This document shows positions 12,925 to 54,514 of a stretch of DNA of 64,000 nucleotides, piece after piece. The notes beneath the pieces are model-generated. The model was not told where the DNA came from. It made no database searches and saw only the letters and a program-made list of their open reading frames with translations. Source of the DNA: a bacterium (lineage in GTDB: Bacteria > Bacillota > Clostridia > Oscillospirales > CAG-272); the NCBI GenBank assembly GCA_963642885.1, contig CAVIJI010000004.1, positions 22,633 to 86,632 on the forward strand, written 5' to 3'. The translations under genes and the position numbers were made by a program. Numbering within the stretch: position 1 is the stretch's first letter; every line of letters starts with the position of its first letter.

Positions 12925-12929
12925 GAGAT

Positions 12930-13682
12930 TTATTCGGCTTCGGGGTATTCGTTGCAGAGGAGGTACTTCGGCTCGGCATCTTCTTCGATTTCGGGAAAAC
13001 GTCCTACCGAATCAAAGAAACGTATATTATCGGATAAAGAAACATTTTTCATCTCACCCAAGTACGGCATGCGATCCACGGGTTCGTAGAATCGGTTGTC
13101 CTTTGAATCGTCGTTGCATTGGCTTACTTCTCCGACAAGAACCTTGCCGTGTCCTTCTTCGCCCCAGAATGCGTGATACAGCTTTCTGGTATTTGTCATG
13201 CTCATACCGGGAGTTAATCTGATAACACTGCCTGCGGGCACTTTATAGTGACGTCCGTCGACTTGTATTTCAACGTCATCAGATGAAAACTCGTCGTTTT
13301 CATCTGCCGCATAAACCTTAATCATAAGGTTGCCGCCCCCGCGATTGATAATGTCCTCCTGTTTATACCAGTGATAATGGTAGGGTGTAGTTTGATTTTC
13401 ATCGACTATCATTATTTTTTCGGCGTAAACCTTGTGGTCATCGGGATTATGTGCATTTCCGTTGCGCAGAGTGAATAAAAACAACCCGCATTTCTTATAA
13501 TCGCCGCTTCCGAAATCCGTTATATCCCAGCCGAGACAGTTGCGTCTGATTTCGTCATATTCTTGGTTGGCGTTCTTCCAGTCATTTACCGAGAAAAATG
13601 CGAACGGAGGAAGCAAAAATTTGTGTTCATCTAAAAATCCGACAGCGTCTTCGATAATCGAATTAATTTCCGATCTTTTCAT
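12930..13682 (-). CDS. D-lyxose/D-mannose family sugar isomerase (cupin)
   Basis: 250 aa, nearly colinear with remembered enterobacterial D-lyxose isomerase: FTLRNG, YAEKIM, HYHWYKQEDIINRGGGNL, LVGEVSQCNDD, LCNEY. Confidence 0.85.
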   Translation of the reverse strand: MKRSEINSIIEDAVGFLDEHKFLLPPFAFFSVNDWKNANQEYDEIRRNCLGWDITDFGSGDYKKCGLFLFTLRNGNAHNPDDHKVYAEKIMIVDENQTTPYHYHWYKQEDIINRGGGNLMIKVYAADENDEFSSDDVEIQVDGRHYKVPAGSVIRLTPGMSMTNTRKLYHAFWGEEGHGKVLVGEVSQCNDDSKDNRFYEPVDRMPYLGEMKNVSLSDNIRFFDSVGRFPEIEEDAEPKYLLCNEYPEAE

Positions 13683-33392: not shown

Positions 33393-34817
33393 TTATTTCT
33401 TTTGAAGAACGGATACAGCTTCCGTAATAGTTTTTTCATGTGCAAGCATACCATACTTGTCAACATCTGATTTGCTCTTTTCTCCGTGAGTGAGACATCC
33501 CGCACCGCCGATACAACCGCCGATACAAGCCATACCTTCTATGAAGTTTGCATCAAGGAGATTCTTGCTCTTTTTAAGAAGAGCGACACGGCAAGCCTCG
33601 ATACCGTCGCATGCGCACGCGTTAAGCTTAAAGTCATCAAGTCCCTGTTCCTTGAGTCCCTCCGCTACAGCGTCGGAAAGTCCGCCCGAACGTGCGAATA
33701 TTCTTCCGTAATAGGACGCATTGTCGAGAACATCTTCCTCGAGAGTCGTTATATCTATGTCGCGGCTGTCAAACAGTGCCTGAAGTTCCTCGAATGTCAA
33801 AACAACATCCACATACGGTTTTACCGTATCGAGCTGAGCCTCTGCCTTTTTAGCGGTACAAGGACCGATAAATATGATTTTCGCATTTTCTTCTGTTTCC
33901 TTAATGTATTTGGAAATAGCTCCCATAGGTGAGAGGTTATGCGATATGAAGGGAACGAGAGTCGGGAAGTTTTTCTTTACATATGCGACAAAAGCGGGAC
34001 AGCAGGAACTCGTTAAAAATCCCTTTTCGGCAAGCTCTTTGGATTCGGACTGAGCTACCATATCGGCACCGAGCGCGGCTTCGATTACCGTATGGAATCC
34101 GAGCTTTTTCATTCCCGTGATAACCTGACCGAGCTTAGCGTACGTAAACTGGCTCGAAATAGAAGGAGCGACAATAGCATATACCTTGTTCTGACCGTCG
34201 CGGTTTTTCAGCAGTTCGATAGCATCGATAATGTACGACTTATCCATAATCGCACCGAAAGGACATTGATATACACAAGCTCCGCATGATATGCACTTAT
34301 TGTTATCGATAGCGGCGGCTTTGTTCTCGTTCATTGAAATAGCTTTGACCTTACATGCGTTCTGGCAGGGACGTTTGCGGCTTACGATAGCGGTATACGG
34401 GCACACCTTAGCACAAGCTCCGCATTCAACACATTTGGTTTTGTCTATATGCGCAACATGATTTTCGTCGAACGAAATCGCACCTCTCTTACATACGTCC
34501 TCGCAGCGGTGAGCAAGACATCCGCGGCACGCATTCGTGACCTCGTAACCGCCAACGGGACATTCATCGCAGGCGATCTCGATAACCTCGATAACGTTCG
34601 GATTGGTTTTGTCACCGCCCATGGCGAGCTTTACTCTTTCACCGAGTATAGCTCTTTCTTTATATACACAACAGCGCATGGTCGGAGTGTTTCCGGGGAC
34701 GATAATCTTCGGAATATCGAGCAAATTATCGAGAAGCGTATCGGTCCATGCCTGACGTGCAACTTCACGAAGAACCTTATATTTTAAGTGCTGTACTTTA
34801 GTGTCGAATTTTCTCAT
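33393..34817 (-). CDS. [FeFe] hydrogenase, group B-like (ferredoxin domains + H-cluster domain)
   Basis: 474 aa with two CxxCxxCxxxCP motifs. H-cluster motifs are TSSCCPAF, GPCTAKKAE and MACIGGCIGG. Confidence 0.85.
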   Translation of the reverse strand: MRKFDTKVQHLKYKVLREVARQAWTDTLLDNLLDIPKIIVPGNTPTMRCCVYKERAILGERVKLAMGGDKTNPNVIEVIEIACDECPVGGYEVTNACRGCLAHRCEDVCKRGAISFDENHVAHIDKTKCVECGACAKVCPYTAIVSRKRPCQNACKVKAISMNENKAAAIDNNKCISCGACVYQCPFGAIMDKSYIIDAIELLKNRDGQNKVYAIVAPSISSQFTYAKLGQVITGMKKLGFHTVIEAALGADMVAQSESKELAEKGFLTSSCCPAFVAYVKKNFPTLVPFISHNLSPMGAISKYIKETEENAKIIFIGPCTAKKAEAQLDTVKPYVDVVLTFEELQALFDSRDIDITTLEEDVLDNASYYGRIFARSGGLSDAVAEGLKEQGLDDFKLNACACDGIEACRVALLKKSKNLLDANFIEGMACIGGCIGGAGCLTHGEKSKSDVDKYGMLAHEKTITEAVSVLQKK

Positions 34818-40178: not shown

Positions 40179-41645
40179 TCAACCCTGTACGTCCTTAAGC
40201 GCTTCAATCGATTCGGATGATTTCTTGTCGAATTTCTCCTGAAGGCTTTGTGTCATGGATACAAGCTGTTCCGCACCGCTCTTCTGTACACTTGACAGGT
40301 ATGAATTATATACATCCCATGAACCGTAGCACGTCGAGTAGTCGAATGTACGGTTTGCAGTTAAAATGTCAAGCATTTCGGTGGTATCTTCGTCACGTGC
40401 GATTTTACCCTTCAGTGTTGTGTCGTAATACGCTTCCGTCAGGTAAGCATCGGAGTAAATCGCCATTGCTTCGATAACATCGCCTATAACCTCGCGGTTT
40501 GCCGAGGCGGTCTGAGGTATGCACATTGCCTGCGCTGTTGCCTCCATTGAACAGGTGTAATATCCCTGATTTTCGTCACGCATCGGGAAGGGAAGTACGC
40601 CAAACGGGTTTTCCATATTATCACGGAGTTCTTCTATAGATCCGAGCTGCATAATAAAGAACAGACACATGTCTGTGTAGAAGCTGGTATAACCCCAGTT
40701 GTCGTTGTTGACGATTACAGACAGATTTTCATCGTTCAAAAGGGCTGCGACTTTCTCGGTAACTGCGATGACATCGTCGGATGCGGTGTTTAATACAAAC
40801 TTTGTTTCATCCGCGTCATCGCTGAGATATACAAGCTGTACACCGCCGCCGTCTACAAGAGACAGATATTGTCCTATGCCGGTTACCAGTCCGTACATAT
40901 CGCCTTCGTTTCGGATACCGTCACCGTTCGCATCGGAGGAGACGGCTTTCATCAGTTCGCCCATCTTGTCGAGAGTCCATTTCTGCTCACGCACAAGTGT
41001 GTACGGATTGTCCAGCGTATAACGATCTATAAGCGTCTTGTTGAAATACAGCGCGCTGCATCCTTCCATTGAGTGAATGTTTGTGTCGTTGCAGGCAAAG
41101 AACAGTCTTCCGTTGAATGTGAATGCGTCTACCGAGTTTTTATCCCACCATGCGGGTTCAAAGGATAATGCTTCGAAAGAGTTTAAATCCAATAGGTTGC
41201 CGGACTCTGCCGTAGGCAGTAAGCTGTTAATGCGCTCCCATACCTGGTCGTATTCGTCCGAACCCGAATTAACGGATTTCTTTATGTATTGCGGAGCAGC
41301 CTTCGTTTCCTCAAGTGAAAGCTTTACGTTGTAGAGTTCTTCGATAAATAATTTACGCTCGTATACCGTATCATTGATGACTTCACCGGTCATTTCTTCC
41401 GCGTCAAGGGAAATGACCCACCAGTTGGAGTTAATGTCGCCGAGCATTCTGAAAGCATAGCCGCCGTAATCTTTGCTTTGAAGTGCTTCGAGTGCGGATG
41501 TTTCCGCTTCGGTTTCACTTTCCGCAACGGTTTCGTTTGCTAAAGCGGACGAATTATCGGTTGTTTCGGCGGGGGTGTTTTCTCCGCATCCTACAGAGAA
41601 AACAAGTAATAATGCAGCGAGGATAAAGCTTAGAGTTCGTTTCAT
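40179..41645 (-). CDS. ABC transporter extracellular solute-binding lipoprotein (family 1, orphan)
   Basis: 488 aa with lipobox LLVFSVGC and an SBP-like body. No permease or ATPase gene is adjacent. Confidence 0.8.
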   Translation of the reverse strand: MKRTLSFILAALLLVFSVGCGENTPAETTDNSSALANETVAESETEAETSALEALQSKDYGGYAFRMLGDINSNWWVISLDAEEMTGEVINDTVYERKLFIEELYNVKLSLEETKAAPQYIKKSVNSGSDEYDQVWERINSLLPTAESGNLLDLNSFEALSFEPAWWDKNSVDAFTFNGRLFFACNDTNIHSMEGCSALYFNKTLIDRYTLDNPYTLVREQKWTLDKMGELMKAVSSDANGDGIRNEGDMYGLVTGIGQYLSLVDGGGVQLVYLSDDADETKFVLNTASDDVIAVTEKVAALLNDENLSVIVNNDNWGYTSFYTDMCLFFIMQLGSIEELRDNMENPFGVLPFPMRDENQGYYTCSMEATAQAMCIPQTASANREVIGDVIEAMAIYSDAYLTEAYYDTTLKGKIARDEDTTEMLDILTANRTFDYSTCYGSWDVYNSYLSSVQKSGAEQLVSMTQSLQEKFDKKSSESIEALKDVQG

Positions 41646-41942
41646 GATTCTGATTCTCCTTAAGAAATAGTGATAGAACGCTGATATAAGTTTGTTTTTC
41701 GTAAAAACAGCTTAACCGCAAATAATTGCCAATGATTTTTTTGCATGACTATGAAAAACGGTGAATAAAATTACGATCCCATTTTCTCGGTACCTCCGAT
41801 CGGAAAATTTATATCAATTCAATTCGTATTGTAACATGATAAAAATGTAATGTCAATAAAAAATTTAAATAATATAATAAAATTACAGTAATAAATATCC
41901 AATCCGAGATTGATTTATGCAAATAGTGAAATATCAAGCGGT

Positions 41943-42336
41943 AAAAAACATAGGAGCCATGCTTCATGAAATGAAGCATGGCTCGGGGAGGCGGTGTATT
42001 TGCCGACGTTTAAATTTAACATAATCCGCCGACGTAGAGTAAGGAAAAACATAGGAGCCATACTTCATGAAATGAAGCATGGCTCGGGGAGGCGGTGTAT
42101 TTGCCGACGTTTAAATTTAACATAATCCGCCGACGTAGAGTAAGGAAAAACATAGGAGCCATACTTCATGAAATGAAGCATGGCTCGGGGAGGCGGTGTA
42201 TTTGCCGACGTTTAAATTTAACATAATCCGCCGACGTAGAGTAAGGAAAAACATAGGAGCCATACTTCATGAAATGAAGCATGGCTCGGGGAGGCGGTGT
42301 ATTTGCCGACGTTTAAATTTAACATAATCCGCCGAC
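41943..42336 (-). repeat. Tandem array, 101-bp unit x ~3.9, each unit carrying a 14-bp-stem hairpin
   Basis: cataggagcc recurs at 41949, 42050, 42151 and 42252. The units are identical except for one G/A site. The array ends 1 nt from the methyltransferase stop codon. Confidence 0.95.
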
Positions 42337-42337
42337 A

Positions 42338-43156
42338 TTAGTCAAACATATCGTAATTGCGCTTTTTTCCTATTAAAATGCCGCGCATGCAATACTTTGC
42401 CACAAGAGGATCCTCGCAGGTGTCAATCTGAACCTTGACGAAATTGCGGTACTCATCCTCGCTCATCGCATCGATTTCATCTATCATGTTGTACAAAAGC
42501 GAGTATGTCGATGCAACGGTTATTATCTCGATTCCGTATTCGCGTGCTATGTCCGTCATTTCATCGAGCATCATTCCGTAGAAGTTTTCACATTTGTGGT
42601 TCTTCTCGACATCGGCAAGCTTACGGTAAGCTCTCATTTTGTCAAGAGCGTTTTCCGTACGCATGGCATTAAAATATTGGCCGAGAGTCATTGCCATAGG
42701 TGTCATGTATGTATATGCAATGTATCCGCCCGGTTTTAAGACACGCATGGATTCCTTTATTATAGTTTCACGTTCGGCTCTGGTACATGCATGATAAAGC
42801 GGACCCATGGATACTAATATATCGAAGCTTTCGGAATCGAATTTGGATAGGCTTCTCGGACTTGAACAGTATATATTTTCGAGTAGTGATGCCTTGGGGG
42901 ACGATTTGAGCAGTTCGTAATGTTCTTCGAGAAGGTCACCGGCCGTTACGGTATATCCTTTTTCTGCAAATTTAAATGCGAATGTACCTGTTCCGGCTGC
43001 TGTGTCGATAACTTTTCCCGATTCGGGTAAATACTTATCGAATAAATATTCGATAGTTTCTGTTTCTGCGGAGGTGAGTCGATCTGAATTGTGTTCTTCT
43101 CTGAACAGACCGTAATATTCAAACATGTCCATAAAATTTCTCCGTTGATTTGACAT
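42338..43156 (-). CDS. Class I SAM-dependent methyltransferase
   Basis: Motif I is VIDTAAGTGTFA. The likely true start is ATG 43132 (MDMFEYY), 8 nt after GGAG. Confidence 0.8.
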   Translation of the reverse strand: MSNQRRNFMDMFEYYGLFREEHNSDRLTSAETETIEYLFDKYLPESGKVIDTAAGTGTFAFKFAEKGYTVTAGDLLEEHYELLKSSPKASLLENIYCSSPRSLSKFDSESFDILVSMGPLYHACTRAERETIIKESMRVLKPGGYIAYTYMTPMAMTLGQYFNAMRTENALDKMRAYRKLADVEKNHKCENFYGMMLDEMTDIAREYGIEIITVASTYSLLYNMIDEIDAMSEDEYRNFVKVQIDTCEDPLVAKYCMRGILIGKKRNYDMFD

Positions 43157-43445
43157 AGTGTTGTTTTTTGTGAAAAGCAGGCATTACAAATAAAAACCAA
43201 GTGCGAACCTTCTCCAAATACATCTTAGCATAAAAATACGTAATTGTCAATAACTTTTCATGAAGATGAAAGAAAGAAACATTTTTTACTTGTATTTGTG
43301 TTACGTATATGTTATAATTAATATAGGGTGAGTTTACATATACGAGCCTTATAAAACCAAACCGAGTAATCGGATACATATGTCGATTAAAGTGATTTAT
43401 TAAAAGACGGCTGTACTCGGTATAATCGCGGAAAGGAAGTTCAAA

Positions 43446-44888
43446 TTGGAACCGAACGATAAAGAATATTTGCCGGAAGACGATGTACATTCCGAGGACG
43501 ATACTCAGTCTCATGATGAAAATCAGGATGAAACACCCGAAGCGGAAGAAACGCAAGTAAAAGAAAACGATAATGATACCGAAATAACGGAAACCACTGA
43601 TAATGATACGGCGGATGATTCCGCGGAGTCGAATTATACTACGGATGAGGACGATATTGCTTACGTAGCTGAAAGAATTACCGGAGCAAGACACAGTATG
43701 GTTACAACGGCGGCCCCTCTCAGAGTACGTACGAACAACGAAACCATGCGTATGAATTCGCTCAGCAGAATAGTAAACGAGAGCACTGAAAAAGCCGAAA
43801 CAAACAAAGAGAAAAACGAAAAAAAATCCAAACGATTTGTGCTGACTACTGCAGTCGTTGCCGTATTTGTCGCGGTAATTCTTTCGACGATCATTGTGGG
43901 TGTTAATATTGTCGCTGACAAAAATAAGCCTGCCGACATAAACATAGGTGATGTCGCAGAGGATTATATCAGCCTTGTAAACACCGAGACCGAGGTCGAA
44001 ACCGAAAAAGCCGCGGAGACGGCATGGATAAAAAACAATACCGAAACAACCGAAACACAGGAAACAAAAATCGATGAGACAGAGGTTGATACGGATGAAA
44101 CCGAGGAAGAGAGCGAGCCCGAAACACAGCCCGAGACCGAGGTGAACACTCCGGTATATAACGTTATTCTCGACTTTTACGACAGAGACGATATAGAAAT
44201 TTCAACGGAGCAGATGACGTTAAACAGTCTGTTGGAGCTGTGCGGTATCACCCTTAACGACAATGAAGTACCGTCGTTATCGCTTGACTCGGTAATTGCC
44301 GCCGATACGACAATTACTATAAACAAATACGAGTATAAATCGGAAACCGTGTCCGAAACGATTCCGTACGGTACAAAGGCAACCGAAACCGATTTTATAC
44401 CGAGAGGTGAGAAAAAATACTCACAATACGGTGAAAACGGACAGATGAACAAGTACTACACTGTTGAATATATAAACGGAAAAGAAAACTCACGTACTCT
44501 CGATTATGAGGAAACGGTTAAATATCCCGTCGATGAGGTTTACGAGGAGGGTGTCGGAGGTTCGTTTGTCGGTTCGGACGGTGTGACATACACATATTCA
44601 TACAGAAGGGTAGTTCCTGCGACATATTACAATATAGAAGGACTTACATATCTCGGTACAATGGCGGATGAGAGTGTCATTGCCGTTGACATGGACAATA
44701 TCCCGCTCGGAACACGTCTGTATGTGAAAAACGATACATATGATTTCGGTGTCAGAATAGCATCCGACATAGGCGGTGCGGTTGACGATTGGGAAATAGA
44801 TATTTGGCTCTCAAGCAGCAATCCGCAGTTTGCTTCGTTTTCTCAGGTCGGATACATATATGATATGGAGATATACTATATTGACTGA
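43446..44888 (+). CDS. Cell-wall-associated G5 + 3D domain protein (YabE/RpfB-like) with acidic N-terminal region
   Basis: 480 aa from a TTG start after AAGGAAG. It has one TM (FVLTTAVVAVFVAVILSTIIVGV), a G5-like segment (ETIPYGT...YTVEYINGKE) and a C-terminal 3D-like segment (GTRLYV...DIGGAV...IDIW). Confidence 0.65.
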   Translation: MEPNDKEYLPEDDVHSEDDTQSHDENQDETPEAEETQVKENDNDTEITETTDNDTADDSAESNYTTDEDDIAYVAERITGARHSMVTTAAPLRVRTNNETMRMNSLSRIVNESTEKAETNKEKNEKKSKRFVLTTAVVAVFVAVILSTIIVGVNIVADKNKPADINIGDVAEDYISLVNTETEVETEKAAETAWIKNNTETTETQETKIDETEVDTDETEEESEPETQPETEVNTPVYNVILDFYDRDDIEISTEQMTLNSLLELCGITLNDNEVPSLSLDSVIAADTTITINKYEYKSETVSETIPYGTKATETDFIPRGEKKYSQYGENGQMNKYYTVEYINGKENSRTLDYEETVKYPVDEVYEEGVGGSFVGSDGVTYTYSYRRVVPATYYNIEGLTYLGTMADESVIAVDMDNIPLGTRLYVKNDTYDFGVRIASDIGGAVDDWEIDIWLSSSNPQFASFSQVGYIYDMEIYYID

Positions 44889-44904
44889 ATAAAGGAGATT
44901 TGTT

Positions 44905-46041
44905 ATGGATTTTACGCCGCTTCGTAAATATCAGGATTACCTGACAAGCTGGAGAATTCCGGGAAACGATTGCATGGTTGTCAAAGACGGAAAAGAAATA
45001 TACCGTTATATGTCAGGCTATGCGGATTGTGAAAAAGGAAGAAAAATGTCAGGCGATGAGCTTTACTATTTCTGGTCGGCATCGAAGGTGATAACCTGTT
45101 CTCTCGCACTTAAGCTTCATGAGGAAGGCAAGTATGTGATGAACGATCGCCTGTCCGATTATATGCCCGAATTTTCCGAAATGATGATAAGCAAGGTCAT
45201 CGACGGAAAGGAAGAACTTGTAAAGGCCGAAAAGCCGATTCTTATCAAGCATCTGTTCAATATGACCGCAGGCTTCGATTATAATTTCTCGACACCGTAT
45301 GTTGACGAAGTTAAAAAGAAAACAAACGGATTGTGTCCTACGAGAGAGGTAGCTGCGGCTATCGCAAAAAATCCGCTTCGTTTCGAACCCGGTGAGCACT
45401 GGAATTACAGCCTGTGTCACGATGTTCTCGGTGCGTTCATAGAGGTAGTTTCGGGAAAAAAGCTGCGTGATTACGCAAAAGAGGTTTTATTCGACCCTCT
45501 CGGAATGACGGATACCACGTACAATATGCCGTCCGCCGACAAGATAAGCAGATTCGCTATACAGTACAGCTACAGAGATGACCTTAACAAATACCTGCCG
45601 ACGAACAATACTTGCGGACACTTTTTGGGAAGTGAATACGATTCGGGCGGCGCCGGAATCGTTTCAAGCTGTGCGGATTATATGAAGTTCGCATCTACCT
45701 TGGCAAACGGCGGTACATCATCAAACGGATACAGATACCTTTCTCCCGCGACAATTGAGCTTATGAGTACCAATACCCTCGGAGAAACACAGATGAAAGA
45801 CTACGGTTGGGGACATCTTATAGGCTACGGTTACGGATACGGTGTCAGAACCATGATTGACAAAGCTGTCTCGGGTTCGCTTTCGCCTATAGGTGAATTC
45901 GGCTGGGGCGGTGCAGCGGGTGTTTGGGTAATAATCGATCCGAAAAACAATCTTTCGCTTGTTTATACCCAGCATATGCTGAATAATCAGGAAAACATCA
46001 ATGCTCCGAGACTCAGAAACGTTCTTTATTCCTGTTTGTAA
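44905..46041 (+). CDS. Serine hydrolase, class C beta-lactamase/PBP family
   Basis: 378 aa with SxxK = SASK and a YSL motif. An SD AAAGGAG lies upstream. Confidence 0.85.
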   Translation: MDFTPLRKYQDYLTSWRIPGNDCMVVKDGKEIYRYMSGYADCEKGRKMSGDELYYFWSASKVITCSLALKLHEEGKYVMNDRLSDYMPEFSEMMISKVIDGKEELVKAEKPILIKHLFNMTAGFDYNFSTPYVDEVKKKTNGLCPTREVAAAIAKNPLRFEPGEHWNYSLCHDVLGAFIEVVSGKKLRDYAKEVLFDPLGMTDTTYNMPSADKISRFAIQYSYRDDLNKYLPTNNTCGHFLGSEYDSGGAGIVSSCADYMKFASTLANGGTSSNGYRYLSPATIELMSTNTLGETQMKDYGWGHLIGYGYGYGVRTMIDKAVSGSLSPIGEFGWGGAAGVWVIIDPKNNLSLVYTQHMLNNQENINAPRLRNVLYSCL

Positions 46042-46196
46042 AATTACGCAGCTACAATAGTAGTTGTATTGTTGATAATGTGTAAACAATGCCGAATCAG
46101 ATGCGACAAAAACGCGAATATTGTTGCAAAACGACGAACAATGTGGTAACATTAATGATAGTGTACAAATTCTTGATCGAAAGAAAGGAAAATGTT

Positions 46197-47699
46197 ATGA
46201 AAAGATTTTTATCTCTTATTTTAGCTGCACTTATCCTTTCCGCTTCATTCACGGCATGTTCGGAAACAACAACAAATGAGAATGATGAGAGCGCGGAAAC
46301 GGAAACGGCTCAATCGGCATCCGAGACGGTAGTGGAAACGGAAGAGGAAACCGAAAAGTATCTTGACGATCTTCCCGAGACAATGGATTTCGGCGGAGAA
46401 ACCGTAAGCTTTTACGTAGAGGACGACGCATCAAACGGATTGGGTGAGCTGTCTATTCTTGCGGAAGAGGATACAGGCGACGTTGTCGATTCTGCCGTAG
46501 TACAGAGAAACAACACCATAACCGAGAGATTGAATATCAACTTGGCTATAACCGAGGTTGTAGGCGGTAACAGTATCAGCTCTGCCCTCAAGACCGGAGT
46601 AGCAGCGGGCGGATGCGACTTTGATATAATGAGCGTATACCAGTACTACGGAGTCGGTACCGCGGCATCGGGCAATGTGTATAACATCGCAAACCTTCCC
46701 TATGTGGACTTCAGCCGCGAATACTGGGGCACAGATTATATCGATAACTTGTCGTACAAGGGCGCGATTTATTGGGCAACAGGCGACATAGCTCTGAAGT
46801 ATATAGGCGGTGCATACTGTACGTATGTTAACGACACAGTATGGAACAACAATTATCCCGACCAGAACGTATACGACATTGTTAACGAAGGTCAATGGAC
46901 TCTTGACAAGTTTACCGAGTTTGCCGAAAAAGTATATTCCGATGCAAACGGTAACGGAGAGAAGGATGTAGATGATATATACGGATTCAACATCTGCTAC
47001 GAAGACCCGGTTGACGGTATGGCTGCAGCTTGCGGAGTAGAATATTCCAAGAAGGACGAAAACGGAGTTCCGGTTATCACTATTGAGAGCGAACACACGA
47101 TAAATGTTTATGATAAGCTTTATAAACTTATCGGTGCAAATCCCAATGTTTACGTAAGTGCCAGCGATGGCGGCGGACAGCAGATGATGAAGCTGTTTGC
47201 AACAGGCAATGCAATGCTTGCCGTAAACAAGCTTTTCCAGGCAGCTGCTTTCTTGCGTGATATGGAAGACACATACAAAATCGTTCCCGCTCCGAAGTAT
47301 GATGAGAACCAGGAATACTATATGACAATGCTTCACGACAGTGTAAACTGCTATGGTATACCTGTTACAAACACGAAATACGAGCTTATGGGTGCAACTC
47401 TCGAAGCTATGGCTTCTGAAAGCTATAAGGTTGTTTCTCCCGCTTACTACGAAAAAGCACTTAAATTCAAGTACGTTCGTGACTCCGAGTCAGGTCAGAT
47501 GATCGAGCTTATTCGTGAGCATGTAACAGCTGACTTTGCAGCACTTTACTCAAACAGCATTTCGAATATTGTACACTTCTTCAGACAACAGCTTGATGCG
47601 GGTACAGAGAACATTACTTCCGTATTCGCAAAGAAGGAAAAGGTTTGGAACAAGGCACTCGAAAAGCTGCTCACCGGACTTGAGGAGAGCGCGGGCTAA
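46197..47699 (+). CDS. ABC transporter extracellular solute-binding lipoprotein (family 1, orphan)
   Basis: The start is placed at ATG 46197 (MKRFLSLILAALILSASFTAC lipobox). It is a paralog of the 40179..41645 protein. No permease gene is adjacent. Confidence 0.8.
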   Translation: MKRFLSLILAALILSASFTACSETTTNENDESAETETAQSASETVVETEEETEKYLDDLPETMDFGGETVSFYVEDDASNGLGELSILAEEDTGDVVDSAVVQRNNTITERLNINLAITEVVGGNSISSALKTGVAAGGCDFDIMSVYQYYGVGTAASGNVYNIANLPYVDFSREYWGTDYIDNLSYKGAIYWATGDIALKYIGGAYCTYVNDTVWNNNYPDQNVYDIVNEGQWTLDKFTEFAEKVYSDANGNGEKDVDDIYGFNICYEDPVDGMAAACGVEYSKKDENGVPVITIESEHTINVYDKLYKLIGANPNVYVSASDGGGQQMMKLFATGNAMLAVNKLFQAAAFLRDMEDTYKIVPAPKYDENQEYYMTMLHDSVNCYGIPVTNTKYELMGATLEAMASESYKVVSPAYYEKALKFKYVRDSESGQMIELIREHVTADFAALYSNSISNIVHFFRQQLDAGTENITSVFAKKEKVWNKALEKLLTGLEESAG

Positions 47700-47700
47700 T

Positions 47701-47847
47701 GAATGGGGATACACCTCATCTTAAGGGTTGAGAAATCCACCCCATTCCCGAGAATTTCCGTAAACGGAAATTCTCCGAAGTGAGGCTTATATGTACGTGG
47801 GATATACCTCATCTTAGGGGTTGAGTAATCCACCCCATTCCCGAATT
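47701..47847 (+). repeat. Mosaic structured repeat: module A - hairpin B - module A
   Basis: Module A1 is GAATGGGG-N31-CCCCATTC (47701-47747). Hairpin B is gagaatttccg-taaa-cggaaattctc (47750-47775). Module A2 is a 5'-truncated copy (47797-47840). Confidence 0.85.
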
Positions 47848-47856
47848 TTAAACAGT

Positions 47857-47904
47857 AAAAAAGGATGTATCCCGAGCGAGTATGCTCGGAGATACATCCT
47901 TTTT
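47857..47904. terminator. Bidirectional terminator
   Basis: aaaaaggatgtatc[ccgagc-gagtat-gctcgg]agatacatccttttt, a nested stem flanked by A/T runs. Confidence 0.75.
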
Positions 47905-47923
47905 ATGTGGGTCCGCAAAATAC

Positions 47924-48241
47924 TTATTTGTTTTTCTTGTCTTCTGCTTCTTTTTTCTTGTCGTAGCCGCGGTTGATGATGTAGATAACAATGTTGATGG
48001 ATACGACGATGAGGTTGAAGAAGTAAACCACCAAAACATAGGGAGCCACGTGTCCACCTATGCTCAATTTTACGAATTTAGCAATGATGCCGCAGATGTA
48101 ACCGGTAATTATGAGAAGAATGAAGGGAAGACTCATAGCTTTTGCGGATTTTGCTTTATAGTTTTTGATAACCGAAAGAGGCCATGAAGCTCCGAAGCAA
48201 ATGAGCATGCAAGCTTCAAGTACTGATGAAAGTGTCTCCAT
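47924..48241 (-). CDS. Small 3-TM membrane protein, PQ-loop/SemiSWEET-like
   Basis: 105 aa with three hydrophobic helices. SWPLSVIKNYKAKSAKAMSLPF resembles a PQ-loop motif with Q replaced by L. Confidence 0.4.
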   Translation of the reverse strand: METLSSVLEACMLICFGASWPLSVIKNYKAKSAKAMSLPFILLIITGYICGIIAKFVKLSIGGHVAPYVLVVYFFNLIVVSINIVIYIINRGYDKKKEAEDKKNK

Positions 48242-48284
48242 GATAAGTCATCTCCGAAAGAATGTTATTTGAAAATTTCCAAAA

Positions 48285-48320
48285 AAAAGCGGTTCGCGGA
48301 GTAAATCCGAAACCGCTTTT
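48285..48320 (-). terminator. Terminator after rplA
   Basis: aaaagcggtt...aaccgctttt, with a long T-run on the minus strand. Confidence 0.7.
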
Positions 48321-48332
48321 AGTATACATTTA

Positions 48333-49025
48333 TTAGCCGAGCTTAGCGGTATTTACCTTAATGCCGGGGCCCATTGTGGAAGCAACAACACAGCTCTTGA
48401 TATACTGGCCTTTAGCTGCAGCGGGACGAGCCTTAACAACAGCGCCAACGAGAGTGTTAAAGTTTTCAGCGAGCTTTTCGGCACCGAAGGAAGCCTTACC
48501 GATGGGGCAGTGAATGATGTTGGTCTTGTCGAGACGGTACTCGATCTTACCTGCTTTAGCTTCGTTAACAGCCTTAGCAACATCCATTGTAACTGTACCT
48601 GCTTTGGGGTTCGGCATGAGTCCCTTAGGACCGAGTACACGACCGAGACGACCGATAGTACCCATCATGTCGGGAGTAGCGATAACTACGTCGAAATCGA
48701 ACCAGTTTTCTTTCTGAATCTTTTCAACGAGATCCATATCGCCTACATATTCCGCGCCTGCTTCTTTAGCGGCTGTAGCCTTGTCGCCCTTTGCGAAAAC
48801 AAGAACGCGAACCTTTTTACCTGTACCGTGAGGAAGAACGATAGCACCGCGAACCTGCTGATCGGCGTGACGTGAGTCAACACCCAGACGAAGGTGAACT
48901 TCGATTGTTTCGTCGAACTTAGCCTTAGATGTCTGGCAAACAAGGTTCATTGCTTCTGCGCTGTCGTAGAGCTTGGATTTTTCGAGCAGCTTCTGGCTGT
49001 CTACGTACTTTTTACCTTTAAACAT
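48333..49025 (-). CDS. rplA: 50S ribosomal protein L1
   Basis: 230 aa with a typical L1 sequence ([12 protein letters not shown]...GPRGLMPNPK-like). Confidence 0.96.
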
Positions 49026-49039
49026 TATTATAGCCCTCC

Positions 49040-49465
49040 TCAGTCTTCAACGGTAACACCCATGGAACGGGCAGTACCTGCGATCATGCTCATAGCCGCT
49101 TCGATGGAACCTGCGTTGAGGTCCTTCATCTTTGTTTCGGCGATCTGGCGAACCTGATCCTTTGTTATCTTAGCAACCTTTGTCTTGTTCGGAACGGGAG
49201 AAGCTGTTTCGATACCGCATGCCTTCTTGATAAGAACGGGAGCCGGCGGGGTCTTTGTAATAAATGTGAAAGAACGGTCAGCGTAGATAGTGATAACTAC
49301 GGGGATGATGAGACCGATATCGTTCTTTGTACGTTCGTTGAACTCTTTAACAAAGTTCATACCGTTAACACCGTAAGGGCCGAGTGCAGGACCTACAGGC
49401 GGCTGCATTGTGGCTTTACCGGCGTTGAGCTGAAGCTTTACATAGCCAACTATTTTCTTTGCCAT
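49040..49465 (-). CDS. rplK: 50S ribosomal protein L11
   Basis: 141 aa with [29 protein letters not shown]. Confidence 0.96.
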
Positions 49466-49610
49466 TGCAAATAATCCTCCATATGTGGTTTATGACGGGA
49501 GACTGAATAGTATTTTCTCCCTCCCACTTTATTTGCCGTTTTATCGGAAAACGACGAACCTTTTTGCGCTCAACTGCACGCTTTTAATGCGGCATACGAG
49601 CGTGGCGGAG

Positions 49611-50162
49611 TTATTCCTTAGCCTTTTCGACATATTTCTTGTCGAGCTTAACCGGAATATCTCTTCCGACGGTGGACACGATTACCGTAGCCTCACCGGT
49701 TTCCTCATTATATTCGGACAGCGTGCCCGTATAGCCGCGGAATACTCCGTCGATTATATTGACACTGTCGCCTACGGTATACGCAAGATGTTCGGTAGGC
49801 GATGCATCCTCTTTAATGATGGCTGCGGCTTCTTCTTCGGTGAGCGGAACCGGTTTGGAGCCCGGTCCGACAAATCCCGTGACGCCGCGGATATTTCTGA
49901 CAATATGCCAGGTTTCGTCGGTCATGACCATTTTAACAAGAACGTATGCGGGGAATATTTTCGATTCCACCTCATGCGGTGCTTTGTTTCCGTCGGTTTC
50001 TATGATTGTTTCCGTCGGAATTCTAATATCTGTGATAAGATCTCCGAGACCTCTGTTCTCGACTATCTTTTCAAGATTGGCTTTGACTTTGTTTTCGTAG
50101 CCCGAATAAGTATGCGCAACATACCAACGCAGACCTTCGTTCATCTCATTAATATCGCTCAT
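49611..50162 (-). CDS. nusG: Transcription termination/antitermination factor NusG
   Basis: 183 aa with WYVAHTYSGYENKV and a KOW region GDSVNIIDGVFRGYTGTL. Confidence 0.95.
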   Translation of the reverse strand: MSDINEMNEGLRWYVAHTYSGYENKVKANLEKIVENRGLGDLITDIRIPTETIIETDGNKAPHEVESKIFPAYVLVKMVMTDETWHIVRNIRGVTGFVGPGSKPVPLTEEEAAAIIKEDASPTEHLAYTVGDSVNIIDGVFRGYTGTLSEYNEETGEATVIVSTVGRDIPVKLDKKYVEKAKE

Positions 50163-50220
50163 AAAATCATTATCCTCCCTGACTCAGGTTTGCGGGGAAT
50201 GACATCGATGCTTCGACTTC

Positions 50221-50493
50221 TCAGAACAGAAGGCTGAGACCGTTAATTGCCTGTGAGAAACAGTAGTCAAGTATTGCGAGAGCTGCGGAGAAAATAACTA
50301 CACACACAATCACAACTATGCTGTTGGAGCGTACGCTCTTCCAGCTTGCCCAGTTGATTTTTTTGCATTCGGATTTAACGGATTTAAACCAAGCTTTGAT
50401 GCGCTCCCAGGTCGACGGCTTGTCCGATTTTGCTTTCTCGGGCTTCTGTGCGTCGTTCTTTTTTACCTCGGTATTTTTTTCGTTTTCAGCCAT
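50221..50493 (-). CDS. secE: Preprotein translocase subunit SecE
   Basis: 90 aa with a Lys-rich N-terminal extension, then SECKKINWASWKSV and a single TM. Confidence 0.85.
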   Translation of the reverse strand: MAENEKNTEVKKNDAQKPEKAKSDKPSTWERIKAWFKSVKSECKKINWASWKSVRSNSIVVIVCVVIFSAALAILDYCFSQAINGLSLLF

Positions 50494-50513
50494 ATCAAAT
50501 ACTCCTTAAGTGG

Positions 50514-50663
50514 TTACTTGGTTTCTCTGTGAAGAGTGTGCTTGCGGCAGAAACGGCAGTACTTTTTGAGTTCAAGTCTGTCAGGGTCGTTCTTCTTGTT
50601 TTTCTTTGTGTCGTAATTACGCTGTTTGCATTCACTGCAAGCAAGAGTGATCTTAACTCTCAT
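50514..50663 (-). CDS. rpmG: 50S ribosomal protein L33
   Basis: Not in the ORF track because it is 49 aa. Hand translation gives [49 protein letters not shown]. An SD AAGGAGG lies upstream. Confidence 0.93.
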
Positions 50664-50801
50664 TCTATCGGCACCTCCTTGAAAATTTTGACCGGGATAA
50701 CTCGGCCAGATAATGTACCTCCCTCGCCGGGGGCAGTCGATGCGTGCGTCATGACCGTGTTACACGCATACGAAAAAAGACCCTCTGCACGAGGTAAATA
50801 C

Positions 50802-50830
50802 ATTATACCATTTTTTTGCTAAACCGTCAA
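50802..50830 (-). promoter_or_regulatory. Promoter of the rpmG-secE-nusG unit
   Basis: Minus strand reads TTGACG-17 nt-TATAAT, leaving a leader of about 140 nt. Confidence 0.55.
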
Positions 50831-50918
50831 TATTTTTTTCGAGATATTCGGAAAGATTAATGTCAAAAAATATTACTATCAGAAGAAAAAAACTGTATAA
50901 AAACTTTATATTATCTTA

Positions 50919-50947
50919 TTTACAATCAAGAACGATTATGCTATAAT
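50919..50947 (+). promoter_or_regulatory. Promoter of rpsO
   Basis: TTTACA-17 nt-TATAAT, leaving a leader of about 115 nt. Confidence 0.55.
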
Positions 50948-51069
50948 ATATTTTGGATTGCCCATGTCACGGTTTTCGGATTAATGGTTGCGTCAGCGAC
51001 ATTTTCACCCGCCGAATGCTGAGACTCGGGAATCACAAAAAACATTTAAGGTGAAAGGAAAACACAGCC

Positions 51070-51336
51070 ATGATGACAAAGGAAAAGAAGCAGGAAATTA
51101 TCGACGCTTATAAGATTCACGAAGGTGACACAGGTTCTCCCGAAGTACAGATCGCTATTCTCACAAGCAGAATAGAAACTCTCACAGAGCATCTTAAGAC
51201 CAACAAGAAGGACCACCACAGCCGCCGCGGACTTAACAAGATGGTCGGACACAGACGTAACCTTCTCGGTTACCTCAAGGATAACGATATCGAAAGATAC
51301 CGTGCCATCGTTGAAAAGCTCGGTCTCAGAAGATAA
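51070..51336 (+). CDS. rpsO: 30S ribosomal protein S15
   Basis: 88 aa with [30 protein letters not shown]. Confidence 0.96.
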
Positions 51337-51674
51337 GTTCCGCCCTCCCGTAAATAAGTCAACATCGACTGACGGCATTGTATTCCAGTGCCCGTAACAA
51401 ATGTGAATAAGCTGTCTGCGGCGCGGATGAGATATTCTTACGCCGCAGTACGGTTTTATTTACGATATTTTGCTGTCGTACCGTGTCGGCAATTAAATAA
51501 TTGTCGAAAGAGAAATACTTTCGGCCGTTCTTTAAGTGCTGAAACGTACGGCGGTAACATTGAATAAGACTACACCGGGTAAGCAACATACCGCTTTGTT
51601 TTGCGGTGCGGTCTTATCGTTAACAATTTACGCATTACAAAAGTATTAAAGTATTTCAGAAAGGCTCAAGACAA

Positions 51675-53771
51675 ATGTTTGAGAATTATAAAACCTTTTC
51701 CTATGACTTTGCCGGACGTCCTCTGGTTATAGAGACGGGTAAAATGGCAGGTCTCGCAAACGGTTCTGTACTTGTGAGATACGGGGATACCGCCGTTCTT
51801 TGCTGTGCTACGGCTTCCGAGAGACCTCGCGACGGTATTGATTTTCTTCCGTTATCCATCGATTTCGAAGAGAGACTTTACGCTGTAGGCAGAATTCCCG
51901 GTTCTTATCTCAAGAGAGAAGGAAGACCGAGCGAAAAAGCCATCCTCACATCGAGAGTTATCGACAGACCTATACGTCCTCTTTTCCCGAAGGACCTCAG
52001 AAACGATGTAGTGCTTTCACTTCTCGTACTTGCGGTTGACCATGACGCTTCACCCGAAATTGCCGCAATGGTAGGTGCGTCCATAGCTTTGTCTATTTCC
52101 GATATTCCGTGGAACGGACCTATCGGCGGAGTTTTTGTCGGCCTGACAGAAGAAGAAGGGCTGATTATCAATCCCACGGCCGAGCAGAGAGAACGTTCTT
52201 CACTCGAACTTACCGTAGCGGGTACAAAGAAAAAAGTCGTTATGATCGAAGCAGGTGCCGCGGAAGTTTCGGATGACAAGATGTTTGAAGCAATCATGCT
52301 CGCTCATGAGGAAATCAAGAAGCTTTGTGCGTTTATCGAGGATATTCAGAGCCAGATCGGTAAGCCGAAGTTCGAGTATCCGTCCGCTGAAGTTCCGCAG
52401 GATTTGTTTGATTCCGTATATGCGTTCTGCGCGGAAGACGTAAAGGTTGCTCTCGACACGGACGACAAGAATGTTCGTGACGCGAGAATGGCACCGATTT
52501 ACGATGCGGTATACACAGAATTCGATAAAGAAAACTCCGAAGAATACCGCAAGGTACTCGACGAGGTTCTCTATAAGGTACAGAAGAAGATTGTAAGACG
52601 TTGGCTTCTTGACGAACAGAAGCGTGTCGACGGCAGAAGAATGGATCAGATTCGTCCTCTTGCAGCCGAGGTACATCTCTTCAACCGTGACCACGGTTCG
52701 GGTATGTTTACCCGTGGCCAGACGCAGGTATTGACAGTTGCGACTCTCGGTTCTATCTCCGATGTACAGATGCTCGACGGTATATCCGAAGAGGAAACAA
52801 AGCGTTACATGCACCATTACAATATGCCCGGTTATTCCACAGGTGAAGCAAAGGCAGTAAGAAGTCCCGGCAGACGTGAAATCGGACACGGTGCTCTTGC
52901 GGAGCGTTCGCTTGTTCCGGTGCTTCCTTCCGTCGAGGAATTCCCGTATGCGATTCGCTGCGTATCGGAAGTAATAAGCTCGAACGGATCGACATCACAG
53001 GCATCCGTGTGCGGTTCCACACTTGCGCTTATGGATGCGGGTGTGCCGATTAAAGCTCCCGTAGCGGGTATTTCCTGCGGACTTATTACCGAGGGTGACA
53101 GATGGATGACCATGGTTGATATTCAAGGTCTCGAAGACTTCTACGGAGACATGGATTTCAAGGTTGCGGGTACACATAAGGGTATTACATCCATTCAGAT
53201 GGACCTTAAGATAGACGGTCTTACTCCCGAGATAATCAAGGAAGCTCTTGCTGTTACTCACAAGGGACGTGACTATATCATTGATGAAGTAATTCTCAAG
53301 GCTATTCCCGCGCCCAGAGCCGAGGTTTCCGAGTACGCTCCCAAGATGATTACCATGAAGATTCCCGTTGACAAGATTGCGGAAGTTATCGGTAAACAGG
53401 GAAGTGTTATCAAGCAGATTGTTGCCGATACCGGAGCAAAGGTTGATATAGAGGAAGACGGTTCCGTATTTATTTCCGGAATCGAGAAGTCATCTCTTGA
53501 TGCTGCCAAGGCAATGATAGATGCGATAATATTCGAGCCTGTTGTCGGCGACATATATGAAGGTGTAGTAACGAGAATCATACCGATTGGTGCGTTCGTT
53601 GAGTTTGCTCCCAAGAAGGAGGGAATGGTTCACATTTCCAAGCTCGACAAAAAGCGTACCGAAAAGGTAGAGGATGTATGCAATATCGGCGACAAGATTA
53701 AGGTTAAGTTCCTCGGTGTCGACGAAAAGGGAAGATTCAATCTTTCGAGAAAAGATGCTTTGGATGACTGA
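51675..53771 (+). CDS. pnp: Polyribonucleotide nucleotidyltransferase (PNPase)
   Basis: 698 aa with two RNase PH domains, KH (GKQGSVIKQI) and S1 (GDIYEGVVTRIIPIGAFVEF). Confidence 0.96.
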   Translation: MFENYKTFSYDFAGRPLVIETGKMAGLANGSVLVRYGDTAVLCCATASERPRDGIDFLPLSIDFEERLYAVGRIPGSYLKREGRPSEKAILTSRVIDRPIRPLFPKDLRNDVVLSLLVLAVDHDASPEIAAMVGASIALSISDIPWNGPIGGVFVGLTEEEGLIINPTAEQRERSSLELTVAGTKKKVVMIEAGAAEVSDDKMFEAIMLAHEEIKKLCAFIEDIQSQIGKPKFEYPSAEVPQDLFDSVYAFCAEDVKVALDTDDKNVRDARMAPIYDAVYTEFDKENSEEYRKVLDEVLYKVQKKIVRRWLLDEQKRVDGRRMDQIRPLAAEVHLFNRDHGSGMFTRGQTQVLTVATLGSISDVQMLDGISEEETKRYMHHYNMPGYSTGEAKAVRSPGRREIGHGALAERSLVPVLPSVEEFPYAIRCVSEVISSNGSTSQASVCGSTLALMDAGVPIKAPVAGISCGLITEGDRWMTMVDIQGLEDFYGDMDFKVAGTHKGITSIQMDLKIDGLTPEIIKEALAVTHKGRDYIIDEVILKAIPAPRAEVSEYAPKMITMKIPVDKIAEVIGKQGSVIKQIVADTGAKVDIEEDGSVFISGIEKSSLDAAKAMIDAIIFEPVVGDIYEGVVTRIIPIGAFVEFAPKKEGMVHISKLDKKRTEKVEDVCNIGDKIKVKFLGVDEKGRFNLSRKDALDD

Positions 53772-53816
53772 GCGGGGATACTCTAAAGCTGAATAGTTAA
53801 GGAAACCACCCCGCTC
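53770..53816 (+). repeat. Solo repeat module A (stem-N31-stem) overlapping the pnp stop codon
   Basis: GAGCGGGG-N31-CCCCGCTC. The 5' arm starts inside the TGA at 53769-53771. Confidence 0.8.
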
Positions 53817-53818
53817 TC

Positions 53819-53864
53819 GAGCTTGCACGTTTGCCTACGGCAAACGTGCAAGCTCCTTTATTTT
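53819..53864 (+). terminator. pnp rho-independent terminator
   Basis: gagcttgcacgtttgcc-tac-ggcaaacgtgcaagctc is a perfect 17-bp stem followed by ctttatttt. Confidence 0.85.
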
Positions 53865-53875
53865 GGCTTAGATTT

Positions 53876-53922
53876 GAGCGGGGATACTCCGAAGCTGAAT
53901 AGCAGAGAAAACCACCCCGCTC
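53876..53922 (+). repeat. Solo repeat module A, second copy
   Basis: GAGCGGGG-N31-CCCCGCTC. The loop is about 70% identical to the copy at 53770. Confidence 0.8.
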
Positions 53923-53928
53923 CCGTGT

Positions 53929-54440
53929 CGGCGGAATCAGTTCGGTTTTGAGGTGGAGCAATAAACCGCCTCCATGAGAATTTTCTCAAAGAAAATTCTC
54001 CGATGTACTGCTTAGGTTTAAGCGGCGGAATCAGTTCGGTTTTGAGGTGGAGCAATAAACCGCCTCCATGAGAATTTTCTCAAAGAAAATTCTCCGATGT
54101 ACTGCTTAGGTTTAAGCGGCGGAATCAGTTCGGTTTTGAGGTGGAGCAATAAACCGCCTCCATGAGAATTTTCTCAAAGAAAATTCTCCGATGTACTGCT
54201 TAGGTTTAAGCGGCGGAATCAGTTCGGTTTTGAGGTGGAGCAATAAACCGCCTCCATGAGAATTTTCTCAAAGAAAATTCTCCGATGTACTGCTTAGGTT
54301 TAAGCGGCGGAATCAGTTCGGTTTTGAGGTGGAGCAATAAACCGCCTCCATGAGAATTTTCTCAAAGAAAATTCTCCGAGGTACTGCTTAGGTTTAAGCG
54401 GTGGATTCAGTTCGGTTTTGAGGTGGAGCAATAGAACGCC
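53929..54440 (+). repeat. Tandem array, 94-bp unit x ~5.4, two hairpins per unit
   Basis: gcggaatcag recurs at 53931, 54025, 54119, 54213 and 54307, with a degenerate copy at 54401. Each unit contains gagaattttc-tcaaa-gaaaattctc. Confidence 0.95.
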
Positions 54441-54457
54441 CACGGTATGGTAATTGA

Positions 54458-54493
54458 ATAAATAAAACCCGACGGACTTTAATCTGTCGGGTT
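54458..54493 (-). terminator. glnN terminator
   Basis: The minus strand has aacccgac-N12-gtcgggtt followed by ttatttatt, 22 nt after the stop. Confidence 0.7.
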
Positions 54494-54514
54494 CTGTTTT
54501 TATGAGAGCGGATA

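Follow-up and report, generated by a model that had tools for sequence, protein, structure and literature searches.

A 101-bp tandem array that abuts a methyltransferase (MT) gene in a 64,000-nucleotide stretch of bacterial DNA (contig CAVIJI010000004.1, hereafter the window) is probably a recent, local four-copy amplification of one unit of a dispersed repeat family, and it was probably co-opted as a set of weak stacked terminators for that gene. The window is ordinary chromosome of an uncultured gut member of the Clostridia (Oscillospiraceae / "Ruminococcus"-like). A first-pass annotation of the same DNA had handled this array (array 1) as a one-off, a view that has to be given up because related elements occupy four sites in the window, including a second array. 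As far as sequence comparison can tell, the array-1 unit appears to belong to a mosaic, dispersed, lineage-specific repeat family that seems not to have been described before. The family is new but of a kind familiar in bacteria, and it brings no new mechanism.

Array 1 occupies positions 41944-42336 with a period of 101, 3.9 copies and 99% matches (Tandem Repeats Finder, TRF; score 779). The anatomy given by the first-pass annotation is borne out in every detail. The sequence CATAGGAGCC starts at 41949, 42050, 42151 and 42252, as expected from the claimed period. The single variable site is a G at 41961 in the copy nearest 41944 and an A in the other three, and the units are otherwise identical in register. 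The 14-bp hairpin (GAGCCATGCTTCAT-GAA-ATGAAGCATGGCTC, 31 nt) occupies 41954-41984, and copies that differ from it by one change begin at 42055, 42156 and 42257; the number of matches to this 31-nt sequence expected by chance is 0. Finally, one nucleotide separates the end of the array at 42336 from the TAA stop codon of the MT gene at 42338-42340. The array makes up the predicted MT 3' untranslated region (UTR), with its units on the sense strand:

42338-43132, minus strand: class I S-adenosylmethionine (SAM)-dependent methyltransferase (MT), 264 amino acids (aa); Pfam Methyltransf_25/_11; 44 homologs, nearly all of 264 aa
42336-42236, 42235-42135, 42134-42034 and 42033-41944, minus strand: the four head-to-tail units of array 1 (TRF; units printed in register)
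42288-42337, minus strand: module of unit 1 (GTCGGCGG, 31 nt, CCGCCTCC), beginning with the first base after the TAA stop
42055-42085, 42156-42186 and 42257-42287, minus strand: proximal hairpins with one G:U pair each, -20.6 kcal/mol, followed by the tail CTATGTTTTTCC
41954-41984, minus strand: distal hairpin with a perfect 14-bp stem and a 3-nt loop, -22.6 kcal/mol, followed by CTATGTTTTTT (41953-41943)

The MT start is placed at 43132 and not at 43156 because the homologs are 264 aa long. Modules identical to that of unit 1 recur at 42187-42236, 42086-42135 and 41985-42034. They are recognized by the pattern CGGCGGA-N30-CCGCCTCC, for which 0 matches are expected by chance, by matches to the covariance model R1 and by weak in-register matches to the covariance model R2. 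On the minus strand each stem is followed by the tail CTATGTTTTT. The last unit stops after this tail and lacks the 11-nt CCTTACTCTAC that ends the others. The stem itself, on the MT sense strand, contains 6-7 G-C pairs among its 14 bp. Minimum free energy and centroid folds of the minus strand keep all four 14-bp stems, three of them with one G:U pair (z = -8.6), and the plus strand has an internal A:C mismatch in three of the stems (z = -4.8). A coding role for array 1 was rejected: its 101-bp period cannot be divided by 3, and the open reading frames (ORFs) of 43-48 aa that cross it shift frame with every unit and have no ribosome-binding site.

Array 1 exists outside the window assembly. 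Independent assemblies supply four contigs with 99.4-100% identity to the window, and these therefore come from the same species. One of them (L002, GCA_963622785.1, 99.4% identical) continues for 157 nt beyond the MT stop and reproduces unit 1, with the T variant, together with the first 56 nt of unit 2 before it ends inside the repeat, so at least 1.5 copies are present in an independent assembly. A second contig (L003, 100% identical) ends 30 nt into array 1. Each short-read contig of the species that reaches an array (L002, L003 and L020) ends within it.

The family unit is ~93-106 nt long and is composed of a G-rich arm and a C-rich arm that pair over exactly 31 nt, a perfect GAG...CTC hairpin that begins 2-3 nt later, and a tail of ~20 nt that ends in ...CTTA..TA(A/C)G. 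In these terms, all four units of array 1 consist of GGCGG, 31 nt and CCGCC, then CC, the GAGCC...GGCTC hairpin, and CTATGT...CCTTAC. The other members in the window are as follows:

47700-47844, plus strand: site 2, starting on the base after the stop codon of ORF 46089-47699
53769-53926, plus strand: site 3, whose first module (GAGCGGGG, 31 nt, CCCCGCTC) opens with the TGA stop codon of pnp
53929-54440, plus strand: array 2, 94 bp x 5.4 (TRF), between the convergent genes pnp and GS-III (type III glutamine synthetase)

Sites 2 and 3 are elements of 1.5 to 2 modules with GGGG/CCCC-type arms. At site 2 the order is a module (GAATGGGG, 31 nt, CCCCATTC), the hairpin GAGAATTTCCG-TAAA-CGGAAATTCTC, a tail and a degenerate second module, and a separate canonical terminator follows at ~47857-47905. 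At site 3 a GAG...CTC hairpin of 17 bp with CTTTATTTT (53819-53865), the predicted terminator of pnp, comes after the first module, and a tail and second module come next. Array 2, ~12 kb from array 1, carries the A/T-rich hairpin GAGAATTTTCT-CAA-AGAAAATTCTC, which has no U-tail, and its tail ends in GCTTAGGTTTAAG. Its terminal copy is degenerate, and four of its positions differ in another strain (L020). One more member was recovered by a degenerate search of metagenome contigs with the site 2/array 2 hairpin. In this contig (L025), AGCTGGGG, 31 nt and CCCCAGCT begin in the TAG stop codon of the F1-ATPase gamma gene, and the order of module, hairpin, degenerate second module and atpD makes this an operon-internal element of the atp operon. 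The atpG frame of L025 (526-1492, on a contig of 1.7x coverage) is split into two overlapping ORFs, probably by a sequencing frameshift, and the element lies between atpG and atpD. The other four of the five metagenome matches to the degenerate hairpin pattern (L021-L024) are GC-rich chance palindromes that the covariance model rejects.

Array 1 is tied to this family mainly through array 2. The two arrays have an identical 45-nt frame, CGGCGGA-N30-CCGCCTCC, with nine matches where 0.00 are expected. Their modules are identical at 34 of 50 positions without gaps, and the local alignment score between them is reached by 1 of 300 shuffles. In both arrays a perfect GAG...CTC hairpin stands 2 nt past the module and leads into a CnATGT tail (tail similarity z = 3.4). 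Array 2 in turn resembles site 2 and its L004 ortholog over the hairpin plus tail (z = 9-12, 0 of 300 shuffles), L025 (z = 5) and the pnp1 tail (z = 4.3). A pattern scan of the window finds the 31-nt spacing between G-arm and C-arm in three independent intergenic regions, which hold the four family sites, and finds other arm spacings only as chance matches inside genes.

The arms covary between loci, as GGCGG/CCGCC, GAGCGGGG/CCCCGCTC, GAATGGGG/CCCCATTC and AGCTGGGG/CCCCAGCT. Across 12 modules, 77.9% of the cells are paired when the arms are aligned with one another, compared with 45-55% when the partner is slid, and the covariation score of 0.318 (against at most 0.14) is reached by 0 of 500 shuffles. 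RNAalifold independently recovers the inner five arm pairs and finds no conserved structure within the 31-nt interior. Between site 2 and array 2 the hairpins also show two compensatory pair changes. An alternative pairing, of C-arm and tail, is seen at site 2 and was discarded as it is not general across loci.

The first module of each element is placed precisely. At the MT gene, site 2, pnp, site 1 of L004/L007 and L025 its start, in the frame of the model, falls 0 or 3 nt away from where the stop codon begins, which amounts to stop-codon anchoring at 5/5 independent loci. At pnp (TGA) and L025 (TAG) the element's own triplet is the stop codon, and most internal copies keep a T-R-R triplet 2-3 nt ahead of the G-run. 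All first units are co-oriented with the upstream gene, and the element strand was assigned on this basis. The contig with the closest PNPase (L052, 98% identical) has an empty site at the pnp stop: it matches the window through ...GATGAC TGA and diverges from the next base. The exactness of these starts is an unexplained feature that could raise the value of the family. It might mean that the elements form an undescribed class anchored at stop codons, which brings its own 5' T-R-R triplet and lands on or replaces the stop, and which either spreads by a mechanism that targets stops or acts as a 3'-UTR RNA switch coupled to translation termination. We regard this as unlikely. If it were true, the terminating ribosome would necessarily melt the G-arm/C-arm stem, and a switch of this sort could work, for example, by freeing the C-rich, anti-Shine-Dalgarno-like strand or by modulating the hairpin just downstream.

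Comparison with relatives suggests that the arrays are young and shows that the family is patchily distributed. The MT locus of a congener (L004, L005 and L007) has a 92% identical MT within DNA that is ~82-85% identical and syntenic, and its spacer downstream of MT measures 410 nt as opposed to 692 in the window. The congener MT stop is followed by a homolog of the opening 45-50 nt of the unit (in L007, CGGCGGA-N30-CCGCCTCC). A degenerate second copy comes next, so that L004 and L007 have ~1.5 diverged modules, followed by a separate canonical terminator, in place of the four units of the window. The array-1 hairpin cannot be shown to derive from the terminator of the L004 MT gene, with which it has only CATGCTT in common. 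At site 2, L004 has 2.5 units (period 94, same hairpin) compared with 1.5 in the window, and the module interior is strongly diverged. In L007, which represents the congener in GTDB, the site-2 array (1245-1361) is interrupted by an assembly gap, a run of N.

Copies within an array have 99-100% identity, and the orthologous modules have clearly diverged between the window and L007, from which it follows that the array amplifications are recent or that the copies have been homogenized. Because three of the four units of array 1 have the derived T in common, at least two rounds of amplification are needed. The first-pass annotation had asked for copy-number variation across strains and metagenomes. 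Copy number does differ in the congener, at both site 2 and the MT locus.

The sister species, which is abundant, shows a different picture. Neither a covariance-model match nor a long-period repeat occurs in 27 loci from the same syntenic region (~480 kb). The PNPase of this species has 96-97% identity to that of the window, its pnp has a plain terminator, and its MT gene is convergent with the neighboring gene across 61 nt. The more distant relatives L008-L019 also give no covariance-model matches. An exact scan with the array-1 hairpin found 0 matches in 185,579 species-representative genomes and 0 in JGI metagenome contigs, which argues that the array-1 unit is not a widespread mobile element, and the family hairpin has 0 matches in viral contigs. 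In the sister species (L026-L051, ~12166-13285) an M23 peptidase gene stands between pnp and GS-III, where the window (53772-54514) has only repeat elements. The spacer between M23 and GS-III occurs in two sizes among the sister strains, 354 and ~179 nt, which is an indel of ~175 nt.

The case for co-option concerns the stretch from the MT stop to the next gene, which is co-oriented with MT and encodes a lipoprotein of 488 aa (40179-41645, minus strand). Its predicted promoter is found ~90 nt past array 1:

41856-41828, minus strand: promoter-like TTGACA-17-TACAAT of the lipoprotein gene, 11/12 matches, TG-extended, conserved in relative L004

Between the MT stop and this promoter there is no terminator-like structure other than array 1. 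Among MT orthologs from 13 species-level relatives and several metagenome contigs, nearly all have one canonical terminator ~30-130 nt past the gene. Within the family, T-rich tails occur only at the two loci where the upstream gene has no separate terminator, array 1 and pnp1, and a canonical terminator is retained after the repeats at site 2 and at the L004 MT locus. The pnp1 hairpin has a predicted stability of -30.5 kcal/mol and a tail score of -3.4 on a TransTermHP-style scale. The hairpins of array 2, site 2 and L025 have tail scores at the random level (-1.6 to -2.1). Since hairpins at these three loci lack a U-tail and one of them is operon-internal, termination appears to be a local and probably co-opted property that does not define the element. 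The first-pass annotation's picture of four stacked terminator-like modules therefore stands in part: a simple terminator scan accepts the strong sense-strand hairpins, but their U-tails are weak, and termination is not a family-wide trait.

The account that we favor would run as follows. The element would be transcribed as the 3' UTR of the upstream gene, pointing in the direction of that gene, and its arrays would grow and shrink through slipped-strand mispairing or unequal recombination between units. The hairpin would be a structural part of the repeat that was co-opted as a terminator at MT and pnp. At the MT locus, the family hairpin may have gained a T-rich tail, giving each unit a strong hairpin and a sub-optimal U-tract, and four such leaky terminators in series could multiply a modest per-unit efficiency. 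The array-1 hairpins might also block 3' exonucleases on the MT mRNA, and the array as a whole would insulate the strong lipoprotein promoter from read-through.

A number of observations weigh against parts of this account. The array-1 tail begins with CUAUG next to the stem, and as CUAUGUUUUU(C/U) it has five U in its first 8 nt. Its tail score is -2.8, set against -2.1 +/- 0.6 for random tails and -3.9 to -5.2, well beyond it, for genuine terminators of the window genome and L004. Because the U-tract next to the stem is poor and scores below genuine terminators, each unit might terminate little or not at all. The strand argument of the first-pass annotation, that the wobble singles out the minus-strand RNA as the structure-preserving one, is correct in its observation (G:U on the minus strand and A:C on the plus strand of array 1), but a single transition always favors one strand. 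Family-wide, stems on the element strand contain 3 G:U and 7 A:C pairs, or 2 and 2 when the count is limited to well-supported inner pairs, so the asymmetry gives no strand signal and structural constraint could act on DNA instead of RNA. The copy number of four comes from one assembly. No mobilizing enzyme for the family is seen in the window.

Membership of array 1 in the family is also less direct than that of the other elements. The R2 model, built from A-type modules only, finds the array-1 modules in exact register and strand with 9.8-11.6 bits (E ~1-3), and it misses array 2. Comparison of array 1 with A-type members over the hairpin plus tail gives no significant similarity. Array 1 is by sequence the most divergent member of the family, and as the A-type comparisons are weak, its assignment is carried by array 2 and by the common architecture. 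The independent loci known so far number five or six, and the genome was sampled as the 64-kb window.

The main rival is a purely neutral or selfish reading, in which array 1 is a minisatellite tolerated in a 3' UTR, the four copies are an accident of slippage, and MT transcripts end elsewhere or read through. We consider this possible, if doubtful. The family is patchy among congeners, being present in the window species and in that of L004/L007 and absent from the examined region of the sister species; patchy distribution has served as an argument for calling BOX, RUP and SPRITE parasitic (Croucher et al. 2011, PMC3049150). The three loci with hairpins that lack a U-tail, including the operon-internal one, and the weak U-tail of array 1 itself fit the same reading, and the near-identity of the copies indicates a recent array that selection has had little time to shape. 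It does not account for the missing terminator, however, since array 1 is the sole candidate between MT and the next promoter although almost all orthologs keep one, nor for the coincidence of T-rich tails with exactly the two family loci that lack a separate terminator, nor for stems that stay perfect through compensatory changes between loci.

Two other readings assign the unit a different function. In one, array 1 would be a series of small RNA (sRNA) genes comparable to the tandem LhrC sRNAs of Listeria or the streptococcal csRNAs, with each unit carrying its own promoter (TATGtTAAATT, an extended -10), a ~65-nt sRNA with the single-stranded, C-rich, anti-Shine-Dalgarno-like seed CACCGCCUCCCC, and a terminator hairpin. 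A -10-like TAAATT, TG-extended, does precede the C-rich tract by ~35 nt in every unit, TTGACT-18-TAAATT is picked out by the scan in the MT-proximal unit, and a C-rich tract followed by a hairpin and U-tail is the classic sRNA layout. Yet the only usable -35 belongs to the first unit and is borrowed from the MT coding sequence, promoter-like matches in the region are at the chance level (10 found, 7.3 +/- 3.0 expected), and neither array 2 nor the orthologous module of L004/L007 contains the -10-like motif. Array 2 and site 2 also lack a terminator tail, and the C-tract is predicted to pair with the G-arm, which together make this reading highly improbable. In the other, the palindromes and arms would act at the DNA level, either as cruciforms or single-stranded hairpins that a transposase or recombinase recognizes or as places where gyrase or a nucleoid protein binds, and any effects on RNA would be incidental. 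Binding of gyrase or nucleoid proteins has been proposed for BIMEs. The almost wholly Watson-Crick composition of the stems (151 Watson-Crick and 3 G:U pairs) with no wobble strand bias would fit a constraint on both strands, the boundaries fall exactly at stop codons, and dispersal to several loci implies some mobilization. Against this, a strand-blind function would not require all first units to be co-oriented with the upstream gene, the scanned ORFs of the 64-kb window include no transposase or recombinase, and neither a target-site duplication nor a terminal inverted repeat beyond the arms was seen. We judge the DNA-level reading to be decidedly unlikely.

Of the known systems, the REP325 cluster of Escherichia coli offers a functional parallel to co-opted stacked terminators. 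Its 12 hairpins between yjdM and yjdN attenuate read-through, stabilize the upstream mRNA and give rise to a transcript ladder (bioRxiv 10.64898/2026.03.23.713779), and array 1 can be likened to such a multi-hairpin cluster between co-oriented genes that acts as a partial terminator and a stabilizer of the upstream mRNA. REP and BIME elements in general resemble the family in being extragenic, hairpin-containing, dispersed and often in tandem with flanking DNA. Most of them follow genes, and a flanking ORF may draw its stop codon from their ends (Di Nocera et al. 2013, PMC3733652), as happens in the family at pnp and L025. The family differs from them in having no sequence similarity, a three-part mosaic unit, no known RAYT (Y1) transposase and a Firmicute host; the REP survey of 2013 includes no Firmicutes (PMC3733652). 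Membership in REP was rejected, as the unpaired GTAG or CGTC that tags one end of a 20-40-bp REP palindrome is lacking: the 5' neighbors of the hairpins are CC, AT, CCC or TC, and C-N-A stands on the 3' side. The unit junction of array 1 does read CTAC|GTC, which adjoins the G-arm and not the palindrome, and the other loci do not have it. Membership in BIME was rejected as well, because all units run head-to-tail in one orientation and are not alternating palindromic units.

Pneumococcal elements provide a second set of comparisons; no similarity of the family to them was evident. SPRITE, like the family, is found in a Firmicute species and its nearest relative only, and it forms a long duplex with a U-rich tract that resembles a Rho-independent terminator, is enriched near the 3' ends of coding sequences and is possibly a co-opted terminator (PMC3049150). 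SPRITE has not been reported as tandem arrays, whereas the family amplifies the whole unit including the hairpin and sets the first unit flush with the stop. BOX (boxA-boxB(n)-boxC) has a tandem, copy-variable internal module that changes by unequal crossover, which is similar to the behavior proposed here (PMC3049150). The terminal inverted repeats that BOX forms from boxA and boxC set it apart from the family, as judged by the descriptions of the two. BOX and SPRITE are co-transcribed with neighboring genes (PMC3049150), as the family would be if array transcription occurs as we propose.

Variable number of tandem repeats (VNTR) loci of the mycobacterial interspersed repetitive unit (MIRU) type and ordinary intrinsic terminators, tandem ones included, were also compared. 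In a MIRU, a short ORF is coupled in translation to the neighboring gene. A MIRU-type assignment was rejected for array 1, as its 101-bp period cannot be divided by 3 and no ORF stays in register through the units. The likeness to MIRU-VNTR is one of form: units of 40-100 bp, dispersed intergenic location, variable tandem arrays and precise placement relative to the bounding codons (in part after PMC12548453). Array 1 resembles intrinsic terminators in its strong stem-loop and U-containing tail, on the sense strand between a stop codon and the next promoter. It differs from ordinary ones in the CUAUG that separates the U-tract from the stem and in its four copies at 101-nt spacing, each behind a conserved 45-nt module. 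An array of the type III toxin-antitoxin (ToxI-like) kind, in which short RNA repeats directly precede a ToxN/AbiQ-type endoribonuclease gene, was rejected, since the gene downstream encodes the 488-aa lipoprotein and has a promoter of its own, and PADLOC gives no relevant match; no ToxN-like or defense gene lies nearby.

Small interspersed repeats such as REP/BIME, BOX and SPRITE tune termination and mRNA stability, and they have been described almost entirely from cultured Proteobacteria and streptococci. The putative new family would add a compact, structurally constrained example from uncultured gut Oscillospiraceae. It could offer a natural series of one to five copies in which to study stacked weak terminators, read-through and mRNA half-life in Clostridia. 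As assembly breakpoints, such arrays fragment metagenome-assembled genomes and would therefore be under-represented in genome catalogs.

The surroundings of the array are unremarkable. Genes in the window include those for FtsH, glutamate dehydrogenase, sugar catabolism, [FeFe]-hydrogenases, rplKA, pnp and GS-III, and there is no transposase, recombinase or phage gene among the scanned ORFs. A search of Rfam 15 (all families, E <= 1, both strands, 41000-55000) gave nothing relevant, and no tRNA or tmRNA lies in 41-55 kb; the only one that ARAGORN finds is a tRNA-Leu at 23659.

An A/T-rich imperfect palindrome (41846-41887) contains divergent promoter-like hexamers, of which the minus-strand set serves the lipoprotein gene. 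The plus-strand counterpart, ATGTCA-17-TATAAT (41850-41878), would transcribe array 1 and then continue antisense into MT. The ~180-nt lipoprotein leader (41646-41827, minus strand, in the window; 7040-7205 in L004) has blocks conserved in the congener, for example ACGAATTGAA...GGAGGTACCGA. It has no Rfam match and could be an unrecognized cis-regulatory leader.

On the other side of MT, a 191-aa minus-strand ORF (43119-43694) overlaps the 5' part of a G5/3D-domain gene (43446-44888, plus strand). Relatives are annotated here with a G5 gene of 465-484 aa and a 70-77-aa plus-strand ORF between MT and G5, so the 191-aa ORF is probably spurious. Tandem repeats also occur inside two genes of the window, at 25675-25715 (18 bp x 2.3, in ORF 25530-26669) and at 33504-33528 (12 bp x 2.1, in ORF 33393-34817, [FeFe]-hydrogenase-like).

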